A program made the position numbers and the translations under genes. Under the pieces are notes generated by a model. It made no database searches. It was given only the letters and a program-made list of their open reading frames with translations, and was not told where the DNA came from. From NCBI GenBank assembly GCA_003695435.1, contig RFJL01000011.1:1-43594 (forward strand): a stretch of 43,594 nucleotides of DNA, given 5' to 3'. Source of the DNA: Candidatus Woesearchaeota archaeon (GTDB taxonomy: Archaea > Nanobdellota > Nanobdellia > Woesearchaeales > UBA11576). This document shows positions 7,635 through 39,617 of this stretch, piece after piece. The stretch's first letter is position 1, and every line of letters begins with the position of its first letter.

Positions 7635-9059
7635 ATGAAAATAAAAAAAATCTCGGATTCGCAAATTGAAATTGAAAAAGAAGGTGCAATGCGTGTGCCT
7701 GTAAGGGTGTTTACATCAGACGTTCTTTTTGAAAAACTCAAAGAGGATAAATCATTACAACAAGGAATCAACGTAGCAACCCTCCCAGGCATTCAAAAAG
7801 CATCGTACATTATGCCCGATGCACATATGGGCTATGGCTTTTCAATCGGTGGAGTCGCAGGTTTTGATGCGCAAGAAGGAATTATCTCCCCTGGAGGAAT
7901 TGGATTTGACATTAATTGCGGAGTGCGGGTTCTTGCAACAAATCTTACTGTTGAAGATGTTCGACCTAAAATGCATGAATTACTCACAGCGCTCTTCGAA
8001 GCAGTCCCCTCGGGAGTTGGCTCAGAATCAAAGTTTAAGCTTAGCAGGGAAGAGATGGATGAAGTATTGCTTAAAGGAGCGCGTTGGGCATTAGAAAGAG
8101 GATATGGCGAAGAAGAAGATCTCGAACTTACAGAAGAAGGTGGGTGTTTCCCAGATCCGGATCCTTCATTGGTTTCTCCTCGTGCAAAAAAAAGAGGAAA
8201 AGATCAACTAGGAACCTTGGGTTCAGGTAATCACTTCTTAGAAATTCAGTCTGTTGATGAGATTTATGATGAAGAAATAGCGCGTCGTTTTGGAATTACT
8301 AAGACGGGTCAAGTTGTTATTATGATTCATTGTGGATCGAGAGGTCTTGGACATCAGGTTTGTTCAGATTTCTTGCGTAAAATGGAAGAACAACAACCAG
8401 AACTTGCTGACAGCCTTCCTGATCGTGATCTCATGTACGCACCAGCACAGTCTCAAATAGCAAAAGACTACTTTAAAGCGATGCAAGCGGCTGCAAATTT
8501 TGCGTTTTGCAATAGGCAGATCATAGCACATCAGGTCAGAAAAACATTCAAAGAAGTATTTCCTGGTTGTGAAGTAAAACAAGTGTATGACATCGCGCAT
8601 AACATTGCAAAACTTGAAGAACATGATGTTGATGGTGTTAAAAAGCAATTGTATGTCCACAGAAAAGGAGCTACACGAGCGTTTGGTCCTGGAAGAAAAG
8701 AAATTCCTGAAAAGTACAGAGATATTGGACAACCAATTCTCATACCCGGTTCCATGGGAACCGCATCGTTTATTCTTGTAGGAACACAAAAAGCAATGGA
8801 GATCTCTATGGGCTCAACAGCACATGGGGCGGGGAGGGTTATGTCAAGATCACAAGCAAAAAGAGAATTTGACGCAAAACAAATCAAAGAAGAACTTGCA
8901 CAGAAAAACATTATGATTAAATCAGCGTCTATGCGGGGGATTACAGAAGAAGCCCCTCAAGTATACAAAGATGTTGATGAAGTTGTAAAGGTGTCGCATG
9001 AAGCAGGTATTGGGAAACTGGTAGTAAGAGTTGTTCCGCTTGGCGTAGTTAAGGGATAA
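7635..9059 (+). CDS. rtcB: RNA-splicing ligase RtcB (3'-phosphate/5'-hydroxyl RNA ligase)
   Basis: PDAHMGYGFSIGGV, GGIGFDINCG, GSGNHF, HCGSRGLGHQ, GSMGT and HGAGR motifs. 474 aa. Confidence 0.95.
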   Translation: MKIKKISDSQIEIEKEGAMRVPVRVFTSDVLFEKLKEDKSLQQGINVATLPGIQKASYIMPDAHMGYGFSIGGVAGFDAQEGIISPGGIGFDINCGVRVLATNLTVEDVRPKMHELLTALFEAVPSGVGSESKFKLSREEMDEVLLKGARWALERGYGEEEDLELTEEGGCFPDPDPSLVSPRAKKRGKDQLGTLGSGNHFLEIQSVDEIYDEEIARRFGITKTGQVVIMIHCGSRGLGHQVCSDFLRKMEEQQPELADSLPDRDLMYAPAQSQIAKDYFKAMQAAANFAFCNRQIIAHQVRKTFKEVFPGCEVKQVYDIAHNIAKLEEHDVDGVKKQLYVHRKGATRAFGPGRKEIPEKYRDIGQPILIPGSMGTASFILVGTQKAMEISMGSTAHGAGRVMSRSQAKREFDAKQIKEELAQKNIMIKSASMRGITEEAPQVYKDVDEVVKVSHEAGIGKLVVRVVPLGVVKG

Positions 9060-15114: not shown

Positions 15115-15230
15115 CGCCGAGGGGGGGATTTGAACCCCCGTGTCCTAGGGACACAGGATCATTGCGAGGTGATCTGAAGAACTCAGCGTTCTTAGCAATC
15201 CTGCGCAATACCAGACTATGCGACCTCGGC
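15115..15230 (-). tRNA. tRNA-Ser (GCU) with a 33-nt canonical intron after position 37
   Basis: Hand fold: acceptor GCCGAGG/CCTCGGC, anticodon stem CAGGA/TCCTG, loop TTGCTA[intron AGAACGCTGAGTTCTTCAGATCACCTCGCAATG]A, long variable arm TGTCCCTAGGACAC, T arm GGGGG-TTCAAAT-CCCCC, discriminator G, then TTTTT. No encoded CCA. Confidence 0.85.
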
Positions 15231-15323: not shown

Positions 15324-15398
15324 AGCGAGGTGGAGCAGCTAGGAGTGCTCGGTGGGCTCATAACCCACAGGTCGGTGGTTCAAATCCACTCCTCGCTA
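15324..15398 (+). tRNA. initiator tRNA-Met (CAU)
   Basis: AGCGAGG acceptor with an A1:U72 pair. Anticodon stem ends in GGG/CCC around loop CTCATAA. T arm GGTGG-TTCAAAT-CCACT. 75 nt, no encoded CCA, followed by a T-run. These features are typical of archaeal initiators. Confidence 0.88.
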
Positions 15399-15431
15399 CT
15401 TTTTTATCATCAGCTCAGCATTCTTAGAATC

Positions 15432-22807: not shown

Positions 22808-23164
22808 GAGTAGTGTGAAGGGACAGATATCTCTTTTTAAAGCTTGTGCTACTTGCAGAGGGATGCTGCGGAGGATGATTGGCGAAGGGTGTTTTGGAAA
22901 CGAGTGGTTTGAACAAAGTATTTGTTGTACAACTATCTCTACGCACTAAATTCGCACATCCTAGGCACTTCTTTTATAAATAGTGTTGATTATGCTCTAT
23001 GCACTACTCTCTGCTCAAACAGGGGGTGCGTGCCTAACGCACCTAAAAAGAGTTGGAGTTGAATCATTACCCTACTCACAACTCTTTAAGTATTTGAGGC
23101 GGGCAGGATGAGAATCATATGAAAAAAGTATTCGTTTTGAAAAAGAAAAGAGGTACTATGTTTG

Positions 23165-25462
23165 ATGAGTAACAATCCGCACAGGAGGAAAAGAGCATTT
23201 CTTGATGAGCTTGTTCAATATCTCATTCCACCATCTCTTATTGTTTTGCTCACTGTTACGTTGTGGGATTTGTTTTACGGCTTTGGACGTTTCGAGACCT
23301 TCATAGATATTTTTGATCTCTATGTGATCATCATTTTCTCAATAGATCTGTGGTATCGATATAAAGAAGTACAGAACCTCCACGAGTGGGTGCATAGAAA
23401 TTATCTAGATATTATTGCAACTATTCCCTATAATTTTCTTTTTGCAGGTATTGCGTGGATGCCCCTTCTTCAAGGCGTAAAGGGGTTGCGTTTTTTAAGA
23501 TTTGCACGTCTTACAAGGTTGTTAAGATTTGCAGGAAGACTTCCTCGATTTCTTCGTTTACGAGGAAGCATCAAAAAGTCTTCAAGAATTCGCAAGAAAC
23601 AACCTCATGAAAAACATTTCAAAGGGGTGCTCTCTTTCAAGGTTATTCTACTCATCACTATTAATTCTATTATGGGAACGGGTATTTATTTTCTTATCGC
23701 AGCAGGTGCAAAACATGCAGGTCCTGCAAGTCTACTATCCTGGGCAATCCTTTCAATCATTTCATTGTATATTGCTGCGTGTTTTTCAGAACTTGTAAGC
23801 ATGTTTCCCAAAGCAGGTGGGGTGTATGAGTATGCAAAGCAGGCATATGGTAGGTTTTGGTCATTTCTTATTGGTTGGTCCACAGCAATTGCAGGGGCAG
23901 TTACCATAGCCATGTTAATATTAGGCGCATTGCAATATATTGCGCCACAACACCCTCAGCTATACATTTTTGCAGCATCTCTTTTCATTCTTCTTTTTAG
24001 CGCCGTTGCGTACAGGGGTATGAAAACATCTGTTGTTGTGCTTATTCTCTTCGCGTTGATCACTTTGCTTAGCGTTCTTTCCTTAATTATTCCTGGGTTG
24101 TTCTCGTTAAGACTAGAAAACTTCACTCCGTTCTTTGTCTTTCCCAGTTTCACCATTCTCCTCACCATTTTTTTCATTGCTGAAACGTTTTTTGGTTGGG
24201 AGTCTGCGGTGTTCCTCGCAGCGGAAACAAAAAATCCGCGTAAAGTTATGCCAAGAGCCTTGATCATAGGAACGTTAGTAATTGCTGTGCTTTCTCTTTC
24301 TTTGGCAGTGGTGGGAATGGGTCTTATCGAGTGGAGTGTTTTTGGACAAAGCAATGCACCTCTTTCAGATATTGCACACGTCCTCTTTGGCGACGTGGGA
24401 AAAGTCATATTCACTCTGCTTGTTTTCATTTCTATTTTGGGAGCAGTTGCGTCCTGGATTGTAACTGCGCCACGTCTTCTTATGGCGCTTGCAGAAGATA
24501 AATTGTTCTTCGTTCAATTCGCTAAAATCCATCCAGTCTATAAATCACCTTACGTGTCAATCATCTTTGAATTTTTTATTTTGATCCTACTCGTTATAAT
24601 CGGATCAGGGTCATACGAGACGCTTTTGCACATGCTCATTCCTCTAATCATATTCATTTATTCTTCTGTGTTACTTGCTGTTTTAGTTCTTCGCTTCAAA
24701 AGACCAGATATTCCCCGAACGTTTAGGGTGCCCTTCGGAAAGATCGGACCCCTGCTCACCATTTTGTTTATGTTTGGTTTGTTAGTGGGTTTTGTTCTGT
24801 ACACGCATTCAGCCTGGGAGATTCTCAAGATATCTCTTTCACTTATCCTCTTTGGAATTCCCGCATATTTCTTTATTGAATTATTCTATACCAAAAAGTA
24901 CACGATTCTTAGAAGACGTGCGATGTTCAAACTACAACATGCGCTACATAAAACAATCAAGCCTCTTCGTTTGTATGCTCAGATGGTGCGCATGGTTGGT
25001 GGTGTGAAGGGAACGGTGATTGATTTTAACACGCCACATGCAGGAATGACTCGGTTTCTTAAACGAAAAAAGATGAACGTTAGCAAAATAATTGTTCTTA
25101 ACCTTGTAAAAGAAGAGGTTGAAGAGTTACGTAAAGAAGGGTTTGAGGGGGTTGAAATACATAAGATACGATCATACACGTTACCTTCGGTTCGTGCAGA
25201 CGCATTTTTTTCAGTTAATGATCTTGGACAGGTTAAAGATGTAGAACACTTCGTAAAACAAGTTTCAAGAGTTTTGAAAAAAAGAGGGGTGTTCTGTTTT
25301 GCTGTGCGTAACTCTCTTGTAAATGTTCATCCTAATGCAATACTCCTCGGAGATAAAAAGGCGATTTTAAGAATCTTCAAGGAAAACTCTCTTGACGCGA
25401 AGTATCTTCGCAAAAAAAAGGGGTTGGGAGAAGTTCTGTTCATCTATGGTGTTAAGCGCTAA
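23165..25462 (+). CDS. fusion protein: voltage-sensor domain (S1-S4) + APC-superfamily amino-acid permease + degenerate class I methyltransferase-like C-terminal domain
   Basis: S2 FDLYVIIIFSIDLWYRY. S3 NYLDIIATIPYNF. S4 LRFLRFARLTRLLRFAGRLPRFLRLRG with Arg every third residue. APC motifs GTGIYFLIAAG..AGPASLLSW..ELVSMFPKAGGVYEY..LIGW and about 12 TM helices. C-terminus VIDFNTPHAG ... ADAFFSVNDLGQVKDVEHFVKQVSRVLKKRGVFCFAV. Confidence 0.85.
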   Translation: MSNNPHRRKRAFLDELVQYLIPPSLIVLLTVTLWDLFYGFGRFETFIDIFDLYVIIIFSIDLWYRYKEVQNLHEWVHRNYLDIIATIPYNFLFAGIAWMPLLQGVKGLRFLRFARLTRLLRFAGRLPRFLRLRGSIKKSSRIRKKQPHEKHFKGVLSFKVILLITINSIMGTGIYFLIAAGAKHAGPASLLSWAILSIISLYIAACFSELVSMFPKAGGVYEYAKQAYGRFWSFLIGWSTAIAGAVTIAMLILGALQYIAPQHPQLYIFAASLFILLFSAVAYRGMKTSVVVLILFALITLLSVLSLIIPGLFSLRLENFTPFFVFPSFTILLTIFFIAETFFGWESAVFLAAETKNPRKVMPRALIIGTLVIAVLSLSLAVVGMGLIEWSVFGQSNAPLSDIAHVLFGDVGKVIFTLLVFISILGAVASWIVTAPRLLMALAEDKLFFVQFAKIHPVYKSPYVSIIFEFFILILLVIIGSGSYETLLHMLIPLIIFIYSSVLLAVLVLRFKRPDIPRTFRVPFGKIGPLLTILFMFGLLVGFVLYTHSAWEILKISLSLILFGIPAYFFIELFYTKKYTILRRRAMFKLQHALHKTIKPLRLYAQMVRMVGGVKGTVIDFNTPHAGMTRFLKRKKMNVSKIIVLNLVKEEVEELRKEGFEGVEIHKIRSYTLPSVRADAFFSVNDLGQVKDVEHFVKQVSRVLKKRGVFCFAVRNSLVNVHPNAILLGDKKAILRIFKENSLDAKYLRKKKGLGEVLFIYGVKR

Positions 25463-38672: not shown

Positions 38673-39617
38673 ATGCAAGAGGTGTTTGTTTGGTCGCTTA
38701 TTGGACTGCTAAGCATTATTCTTATCGTCAAGTCAGCAAGCTATGCCATTGAGTCTATCATTCGCTATGCAAGAAAAACAGGGCTTTCTTATTATTTTGT
38801 GGGTCTTCTTATTGTCTCCATAGGAACATCTCTTCCTGAGATTTTCACCGCAGTGATATCCGCACTGCAAGGAGCATCTCAACTTGTCATAGGGGATGCA
38901 ATGGGTGCAACCATCGTTGATATTGGTCTTGTTCTCTCATTAGTGGGTCTTGTTGGGGGGAAAGTTGTCTTCAAGAAAAAAGAGGCAAATCTAAGTGCGG
39001 TAAAGATACTTGCAGTGGTGGCAGCACCGCTTATTCTTGCAATTGATGGAACACTTTCCCGACTTGATGGTATTTTAATGATCGTACTCTACATCTTCTA
39101 CTATGCTATTAACATTTTCAAGGAGATCACACAGCAGAAGGTTGCAAAGAAGGTTCCTCTAACCTTTGCGCTTCATGAGACTCTGGTGTTTGGCATTAAT
39201 ATTGCGTTGCTTCTCTTTGGAACGCAAGTTCTCGTAAAGTCGGCAACGACTCTGTCAAGTATCTTGGGAATTCCCGAATATCTTTTTGGGGCTCTTTTCC
39301 TGAGCATTTGCACAACGTCTCCGGAATTCATGGTGGAGCTCAAGGCATTATGGAGTAAATCCGCGCCTATTGCATTAGGGGATATCTTCGGATCGGTGGT
39401 AACCAATACTTCTCTTGTCCTGGGAATTGCCTGTGTGATTTCGCCAGTGATGATAGCAACACAATTCTTCGTAGTGGGTTTTTTCATGGTGGGTCTTGTG
39501 GCCTTGGGGCTTTTGTTTCTAAGGGCTGAGCGTATTACTCGTACACAGGGATTGGTGTTGTTCCTGGGCTATGTGATTTTTGCTCTCACTCAACTTTTTG
39601 CACTTACACAACATTAG
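38673..39617 (+). CDS. Ca2+/cation antiporter (CaCA, YrbG-like)
   Basis: Two alpha-repeat motifs SIGTSLPEIFTAV and CTTSPEFMVEL, about 10 TM helices, 314 aa. Confidence 0.85.
   Translation: MQEVFVWSLIGLLSIILIVKSASYAIESIIRYARKTGLSYYFVGLLIVSIGTSLPEIFTAVISALQGASQLVIGDAMGATIVDIGLVLSLVGLVGGKVVFKKKEANLSAVKILAVVAAPLILAIDGTLSRLDGILMIVLYIFYYAINIFKEITQQKVAKKVPLTFALHETLVFGINIALLLFGTQVLVKSATTLSSILGIPEYLFGALFLSICTTSPEFMVELKALWSKSAPIALGDIFGSVVTNTSLVLGIACVISPVMIATQFFVVGFFMVGLVALGLLFLRAERITRTQGLVLFLGYVIFALTQLFALTQH

Follow-up and report, generated by a model that had tools for sequence, protein, structure and literature searches.

In a 43,594-nucleotide stretch of DNA from Candidatus Woesearchaeota archaeon (contig RFJL01000011.1 of GenBank assembly GCA_003695435.1; hereafter the window, meaning the whole stretch analyzed), we identified a gene that encodes, in one open reading frame (ORF), a voltage-sensor domain (VSD), then an APC permease and then a tail with a methyltransferase fold (Table 1). 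This architecture is almost certainly real, and its N-terminal module is very probably a true VSD homologue. On balance, we take the protein to be a candidate voltage-regulated amino-acid transporter, a reading that we hold with modest confidence and weigh below against its rivals.

Table 1 Features of the VSD–permease gene and other annotated features of the window (SAM, S-adenosylmethionine; TM, transmembrane helix)
Feature	Coordinates	Strand	Details
Whole coding sequence	23165..25462	+	765 amino acids from ATG; alternative TTG start at 23162
S1	23210..23278	+	Residues ~16–38; AlphaFold helix 5–38; hydropathy TM 16–34; KvAP S1 aligns
S2	23285..23371	+	Residues ~41–69; D51 outer countercharge; F58 and D61 charge-transfer center
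S3	23378..23446	+	Residues ~72–94; motif LDIIATIPY; D82 countercharge; P88 invariant
S4	23462..23563	+	Residues ~100–133; ends in hinge R125-x-P127-R128-F129
Basic linker, predicted cytoplasmic, from S4 to permease TM1	23564..23638	+	Residues 134–158; near-invariant Q146-P147-H148-E149-K
12-TM APC-superfamily (LeuT-fold) permease	23639..24889	+	Residues ~159–575
Class-I SAM-methyltransferase-fold domain, predicted cytosolic	24932..25459	+	Residues ~590–765
Degenerate motif I (SAM glycine loop)	25016..25045	+	VIDFNTPHAG, residues 618–627
Motif II position	25094..25108	+	VLNLV; Asn in place of the acidic SAM-ribose-binding residue
RtcB tRNA-splicing ligase	7635-9059	+
tRNA spanning 116 nucleotides against a 71-position model	15115-15230	-	Rfam match; missed by ARAGORN in default mode
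tRNA-Met, normal	15324-15399	+	Divergent, ~100 nucleotides from the 116-nucleotide tRNA
Na+/Ca2+ exchanger family protein	38673-39617	+	PF01699, E 2e-45

The ORF has 766 codons including the stop when read from the ATG at 23165, and it would encode 766 amino acids from the TTG at 23162. It is monocistronic and lies on the plus strand between two minus-strand genes, the upstream one encoding a PIG-L deacetylase and the downstream one a DHH/DHHA1 protein. An initial annotation, made without database searches, had already proposed a three-part protein in one ORF; Pfam, profile matches to the PDB and sequence motifs all fell where it had placed the modules, and each string that it quoted was recovered at its position in the translated ORF. 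A hydropathy scan found S1, S2 and 12 further TMs. Based on hydropathy and positive-inside charge, the N-terminus, linker and tail are all predicted to be cytoplasmic, as the joining of a VSD to an APC core demands. To describe conservation, we used 120 full-length homologues throughout, the best 120 of 634 relatives of the full-length query. Pairwise identity among them was 0.64–0.70 for the sensor and linker, 0.78 for the permease core and 0.43 for the tail.

The helices of the N-terminal module carry the signature residues of a voltage sensor. S2 contains FDLYVIIIFSIDLWYRY (residues 50–66), S3 contains NYLDIIATIPYNF (residues 79–91) and S4 contains LRFLRFARLTRLLRFAGRLPRFLRLRG (residues 108–134), the last with nine Arg, of which five form an uninterrupted i+3 run. 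The initial annotation had pointed to acidic residues in S2 and S3 and to nine Arg mostly at every third position in S4; both observations stand, and the acidic residues proved to be nearly fixed in the family. D51, D61, R65, P88, P127 and R128 are invariant (120/120), F58 is kept in 119, position 82 is acidic in 119 (110 with D, 9 with E), and position 35 in S1 is acidic (E or D) in 117 of the 120 homologues. When aligned to KvAP, D51 and D61 coincide with the two aspartates in S2 of that channel and D82 with the S3 glutamate of its 'YEIPALVP' motif. We take the spacing of F58-x-x-D61 and D82 to be that of the Shaker charge-transfer center F290/E293/D316, with D51 presumably equivalent to E283.

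Arginine spacing in S4 of the window protein was more regular than in shuffles of the same segment, both for the length of the run (P 0.019) and for the number of i/i+3 pairs (P 0.0035). Across the family, S4 carries 8–14 basic residues; most members have 11–12, spread in typical cases over about 37–39 residues, with 6–7 in an unbroken i+3 run. The segment from the end of S3 to the PRF of the hinge mostly measures 41, 44, 47, 50 or 53 residues, and 105 of 117 homologues fall into one class modulo three. Such three-residue steps are what selection on the arginine register would produce.

Profile searches place this module among voltage sensors. On residues 1–160 alone, the Ion_trans model (PF00520) reached 28.4 bits (cut-off 25; E 1.2e-6) over profile positions 29–125 of 241, which correspond to S2–S4 without the pore half. 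A single-sequence search of the N-terminus against the PDB gave a weak match to KvAP (E 0.18). Using a 35-sequence profile of residues 1–158, the best match was the isolated KvAP sensor, covered over S1–S4 (E 6.7e-6), followed by HCN1, HCN4, hERG and Kv1.3, and all 28 of 28 matches were sensors of voltage-gated channels. A 42-sequence profile that included distant stand-alone relatives matched KvAP at E 2.5e-8 over profile positions 6–132 of 137, and all of its 33 PDB matches were Kv sensors. The assignment of residues 17–135 to the voltage sensors, for which the initial annotation had suggested a profile search, was thereby borne out. We also built AlphaFold2 models of the isolated sensor, one of residues 1–158 with 35 sequences and one of residues 12–138 with 42 sequences. 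Both contain four helical segments, namely S1 (5–38), S2 (41–69), a broken S3 (72–94) and S4 (100–133), the last interrupted at P127 in the second model.

When the full-length protein was scanned, Pfam reported no Ion_trans match. Relatives are annotated as 'APC family permease', and their precomputed database domains do not include Ion_trans. This public label arises because a whole-protein Pfam scan misses the sensor, which consequently goes unreported under that name.

Beyond S4, the protein departs from the channels that its sensor resembles. No S5, P-loop or S6 follows, and the chain instead enters permease TM1 25 residues on, in agreement with the absence of a pore or selectivity filter noted in the initial annotation. 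By the same measure, the pore that defines the voltage-gated ion channel (VIC) superfamily is missing, as the Ion_trans match stops at position 125 of 241. The 25-residue linker is as conserved as the sensor itself (pairwise identity 0.70), with H148 present in 120/120 and P147 in 117/120 homologues. Solved APC transporters have only ~8 residues before TM1, and residue 9 of BasC aligns to residue 161 of the window protein.

The central module is a complete APC-type permease core, as had been proposed. AA_permease_2 (PF13520) matched residues 156–540 with E 5e-44 (151 bits against a cut-off of 27; profile positions 1–404 of 427), and AA_permease (PF00324) matched with 118 bits. The core shows 12 hydropathy peaks with positive-inside alternation (Lys plus Arg per loop, 3/2/4/4/6 inside and 1/0/1/1/0/0 outside), which puts both of its termini in the cytoplasm. 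The TM1 motif GTG (residues 171–173, within GTGIYF at 171–176) and the TM6 motif FFGWES (342–347) are invariant or nearly so in the family, and FPKAGGVYEY occupies residues 214–223. The best PDB match was BasC (6f2g, E 5e-34), followed by a consensus construct of xCT, GkApcT, b0,+AT, LAT2 and AdiC. Proton coupling through a TM5 lysine was considered as well; the alignment to BasC, at 25% identity, is too unreliable for this purpose, and we make no claim about it.

The tail matched methyltransferases both in Pfam and in a profile search of the PDB. Methyltransf_11 reached 22–26 bits (cut-off 21.2) on residues 638–712 of the window protein, covering only profile positions 17–95, and it matched 13 of 22 diverse tails of the family. 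With a tail profile, the best PDB match was the ToxA methyltransferase (8rdl, E 6e-5), followed by CFA synthase and BioC. Motif I of methyltransferases has the form hh[D/E]hGxGxG. At this position, 'vlDLaCGyGyF' of 8rdl aligns to the family consensus ivdynsplgaf and to VIDFNTPHAG in the window protein, so that the degenerate glycine loop reported by the initial annotation is confirmed. The acidic residue of motif II is lost in addition: VLNLV aligns to 'vvGVDiS' of 8rdl, where the family consensus reads 'vvNsS'.

Not all members share this degeneration. A SAM loop of the form [DE]x[DG]CGxG is kept in 24 of the 120 homologues and absent from the other 96; motif II reads 'AVDKS' in intact-loop homologues and 'ANQS' in degenerate ones, and the former match several Pfam methyltransferase models strongly (best E 3e-14). 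Because about a fifth of members keep a near-canonical loop, the loss of the SAM-binding motifs, judged from these alignments, appears as a lineage-specific event and not as a property of the whole family. Intact-loop homologues lean toward shorter S4 segments (41 or 47 residues), while degenerate-loop homologues mostly have 50, an association that is probably a phylogenetic effect. A separate 50%-cluster representative, P0209 (587 amino acids), comprises the sensor and the APC core and ends just after TM12, without a tail; this may reflect either a true tail-less form or a gene call that was cut short.

We found the same architecture repeatedly in other archaeal and DPANN metagenome-assembled genomes (MAGs), where the initial annotation had suggested looking for it. 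Full-length clusters number >120 and derive from JGI, ENA, NCBI, Logan and Tara assemblies, with contigs of up to 922 kb. The best 120 relatives are 735–861 amino acids long and 52–66% identical to the window protein (except for the near-identical strain P0001) at 92–100% query coverage, and their named sources are Woesearchaeota or Nanoarchaeota. In a scan of GTDB species representatives, the sensor was present in ~59 genomes, including two single-cell genomes. Sensor and permease motif lie in one ORF of 740–861 amino acids at 50 of 58 family loci, and 57 of the 58 come from species-level GTDB genomes titled archaea. The other eight consist of seven loci cut by contig ends and one (L005) missed by the motif used, and no split version of the fused gene was found among the 58. 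Loci L004, L005, L008 and L009 and ~25 others come from MAGs titled 'uncultured Methanosarcinales archaeon' (binchicken co-assemblies). Their proteins are 45–55% identical to those from Woesearchaeota/Nanoarchaeota MAGs, and the title looks like a placeholder or mislabel.

The gene is also intact in independently assembled relatives. The Logan assembly from run SRR7905022 contains the same protein with one substitution (R609S) between the same neighbors, and a 66% identical orthologue (P0002) on a 153-kb contig shares the neighborhood SMC / GT4 / PIG-L / gene / DHH / ThiF / SLT. These neighbors are absent from 62 related loci, except for one DHH match. A conserved gene neighborhood was therefore rejected, with synteny limited to the SRR7905022 strain and P0002; since only these two closest relatives keep it, no operon partner offers a clue to function.

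The sensor profile, run exhaustively against 1.84 billion representative proteins, matched at least 403 of them at E ≤ 1e-10, among which the VSD–APC family accounts for one full-length representative (P0023, 779 amino acids) and P0209. Almost all other listed matches are 100–310 amino acids long and thus have no room for a pore. Stand-alone sensors of ~140–230 amino acids are numerous (P0140-P0180 and P0210-P0351; for example, P0156 at locus L063 4001-4471). The signature LDIIATIPF...PRF is shared by them, in many an acidic, helical insertion separates S3 from S4, and those with a source name come from Woesearchaeota/Nanoarchaeota. We rejected the idea that they are a split form of the fusion, as their genes are not adjacent to permease genes. 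In two further arrangements, the sensor is C-terminal, following either an HPP domain (PF04982) in proteins of ~305–320 amino acids (P0153, P0158, P0163, P0172 and P0228) or a domain of ~4 TMs in proteins of 260–320 amino acids (P0181, P0185, P0187, P0191, P0193, P0203, P0206 and P0207). In the latter set, S4 is not followed by a pore, and Pfam matches nothing in the N-terminal part. A bacterium of the Clostridia, Herbivorax sp. ANBcel31, also encodes a stand-alone VSD (203 aa; L060 3797-4408, plus strand), whose S4 has a regular R-x-x pattern and which lacks a pore; hence the pore-less format is not confined to archaea. The VSD–APC protein is one product of this broader radiation of pore-less sensors, which is apparently undescribed.

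How a sensor of this kind could act on a carrier is suggested by the way that the two are joined. In LeuT-fold carriers, the cytoplasmic (inner) half of TM1 gates the inward-facing state. In the mechanism that we propose, S4 would move with the membrane potential and, because the conserved R-x-P-R-F hinge and QPHEK linker would couple its cytoplasmic end directly to TM1, the gate of the inward-facing state, the position of S4 would bias or lock the transport cycle. Physiologically, the arrangement would most likely serve as a check valve, in which uptake proceeds while the membrane is energized and is blocked when the potential collapses. Such a valve would stop a reversible carrier from leaking scarce amino acids out of a reduced-genome cell. 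The polarity of the voltage dependence cannot be read from the sequence. The tail, predicted to lie on the same cytoplasmic face as the linker, is probably a regulatory or scaffolding pseudo-enzyme and in the intact-loop subclade possibly a SAM-binding module.

Several observations weigh against a voltage-regulated amino-acid transporter. Control by voltage is deduced from sequence, and the fold assignment of the N-terminus likewise rests on sequence profiles and signature residues. In three dimensions, the fold is unconfirmed. Model confidence was moderate (predicted local distance difference test ~78, predicted template-modeling score 0.52–0.53), with values of 57–72 in S4. When the models were compared to the PDB with Foldseek, VSD channels such as HCN1, NavAb, KCNQ2, CavAb and the KvAP sensor made up ~44 of 50 listed matches for the first model and ~35 of 48 for the second, none of them significant (best E 0.77 and 0.89, template-modeling scores 0.43–0.45, root-mean-square deviations 13–18 Å), and neither trimming the domain nor deepening its alignment by adding stand-alone sensors produced a significant match. 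The S4 of the window protein is among the shortest of the family. As for the substrate, no NCBIfam subfamily or equivalog assignment was reached, the best being TIGR00909 with 178 bits against a cut-off of 557 and all equivalogs scoring far below theirs, and the resemblance to solved APC transporters is too low to assign one. Finally, most of the closest relatives with solved structures are exchangers (BasC, xCT and AdiC), which weakens the argument from leak prevention.

The absence of a significant Foldseek match to a voltage sensor and the low confidence of S4 would both be expected if the sensor-like domain were a structural relic serving folding, oligomerization or membrane insertion, attached to an ordinary APC transporter as a set of extra helices. 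Non-sensing VSD-like domains do exist, for example the first VSD of two-pore channels. We nonetheless regard a relic as unlikely, given that the functional hallmarks are fixed (D51, D61 and R65 invariant, F58 in 119/120 and an acidic residue at position 82 in 119/120), that indels in S4 come in multiples of three and so keep the arginine register, and that conservation of the sensor and linker comes close to that of the permease core. Alternatively, the pore-less sensor could itself conduct ions, through an Hv1-like proton pathway or an omega-type leak, and so deliver or drain the coupling ion beside the permease without gating the carrier allosterically. These archaea indeed encode many related pore-less sensors as stand-alone proteins of 140–230 amino acids, the format of Hv1-type channels, and the genes lie away from permease genes, so that this type of VSD can have a function of its own. 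However, an S4 with 8–14 basic residues and an intact Phe/Asp center is typical of occluded, non-conducting sensors, the profile matches Kv, HCN and hERG with no Hv1 among the significant PDB matches, and the tightly conserved linker into TM1 argues for mechanical coupling; ion conduction therefore seems to us distinctly improbable.

We give slightly less credence still to control of the tail, either by the sensor in the manner of Ci-VSP or by the permease acting as a transceptor that the methyltransferase-fold domain reads out. Members with an intact SAM loop could, on such a reading, methylate the substrate during or after import. The linker and tail share a membrane face, and in 24 of the 120 homologues the SAM loop is near-canonical and motif II has its acidic residue. 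The window protein and 80% of the family have, however, lost the SAM motifs, no module is less conserved than the tail (0.43 identity), and the P0209 representative lacks it altogether, albeit possibly through truncation of the gene call. Moreover, the tail lies ~440 residues and 12 TMs away from S4, whereas in voltage-sensing phosphatases (VSPs) a direct linker joins the VSD to the phosphatase. That the fusion is a chimeric assembly or a frameshift joining separate genes, a concern raised in the initial annotation, is exceedingly improbable. The same continuous ORF recurs in >120 clusters from five source collections and in other sequencing runs, with 50 complete single ORFs among 58 loci (two single-cell genomes included); the SRR7905022 assembly differs by one residue and has the same neighbors, the 66% orthologue is syntenic on its 153-kb contig, and the linker at the junction is itself conserved.

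A voltage-regulated carrier of this type has one precedent in principle. SLC9C1 (sNHE), a sperm Na+/H+ exchanger, is gated by an S4-type voltage sensor and by cAMP (PMC6052114); its S4 is ~60 Å long, and it has been described as the sole transporter exception to voltage sensors being parts of channels (PMC10620092). The initial annotation, which knew of no characterized fusion of a VSD to a secondary transporter, had overlooked this protein (PMC6052114, PMC10620092). The statement of 'no precedent' is thus wrong in general and right for the APC fold and for the archaeal lineage; in a literature search from which most subscription journals were excluded, we found no earlier account of a VSD–APC fusion, nor of any VSD from DPANN archaea, and the only relevant papers were those on SLC9C1.

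SLC9C1 is an established case of a secondary transporter gated by a VSD (PMC10620092) and resembles the archaeal family in combining a secondary transporter with an S4-type VSD in one chain without a pore. Both are tripartite, with a cytosolic domain of a ligand-binding type, and S4 is unusually long in SLC9C1 and in typical members of the archaeal family. SLC9C1 has an NhaA/CPA fold and the archaeal family an APC/LeuT fold; the order of domains is exchanger, VSD and cyclic-nucleotide-binding domain (CNBD) in the former and VSD, permease and tail in the latter; and the third domain binds cyclic nucleotides in SLC9C1, whereas it has a methyltransferase fold in the archaeal proteins. The coupling differs too, with cytosolic helices clamped on S4 in SLC9C1 and a 25-residue linker from S4 into TM1 in the archaeal family. 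Measured against the SLC9C1 type, only the VSD and carrier in one pore-less chain are present in the window protein, and its fold, domain order and CNBD are not. SLC9C1 is metazoan, and we detected no sequence homology to it beyond the VSD; the two are therefore independent inventions, and the archaeal family looks like a second, independent kind of VSD–transporter fusion and the first outside animals.

Comparison with other known systems separates the modules in the same way. KvAP, which is also archaeal, and the Kv and HCN channels share with the window protein a match over S1–S4, the countercharges in S2 and S3 and an Arg at every third position in S4, but the window protein has no S4–S5 linker, S5, P-loop or S6 and continues into a transporter. 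BasC, GkApcT, LAT and AdiC share the 12-TM core, the G-[ST]-G motif of TM1 and the aromatic-G-x-acidic motif of TM6, and the match to BasC spans residues 9–431 of its 444. Unlike the window protein, these transporters have few residues before TM1 and neither an N-terminal sensor nor a methyltransferase-fold tail. Ci-VSP and Hv1 resemble the window protein in having a VSD without a canonical pore and, in Ci-VSP, a cytosolic enzyme-fold domain. The window protein, however, contains no phosphatase, and its enzyme-fold domain lies 12 TMs from S4. No VSP or Hv1 entries occurred among the significant PDB profile matches. Whereas S4 of Hv1 has three Arg, that of the window family is far more charged.

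We see even chances that this is the first voltage-gated secondary transporter from a prokaryote and likewise the first with S4 wired directly into TM1 of a LeuT-fold carrier, an independent archaeal invention and part of a DPANN toolkit of pore-less VSD modules (stand-alone, HPP-fused and four-TM-fused) that make membrane proteins answer to the potential. If so, electromechanical coupling to carriers would be a general solution and not a sperm-specific oddity, and this second example would differ from the first in transporter fold, in wiring (S4 into TM1) and in domain of life. It would also suggest that DPANN cells, genome-reduced and host-dependent as they are, link the uptake of nutrients to membrane energization. 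As a compact single chain of 765 amino acids, the protein could be used to ask how movement of S4 is transmitted to alternating access, and the family supplies natural variants for this purpose, with 8–14 charges in S4 and intact or degenerate SAM loops.

The remainder of the window encodes CDC48, RtcB, Nre, XPD and FtsZ, from which we conclude that the window is archaeal. The 116-nucleotide tRNA is consistent with an archaeal intron-containing tRNA. The Na+/Ca2+ exchanger family protein would be a second ion-gradient-coupled carrier and hints that the organism maintains cation gradients.

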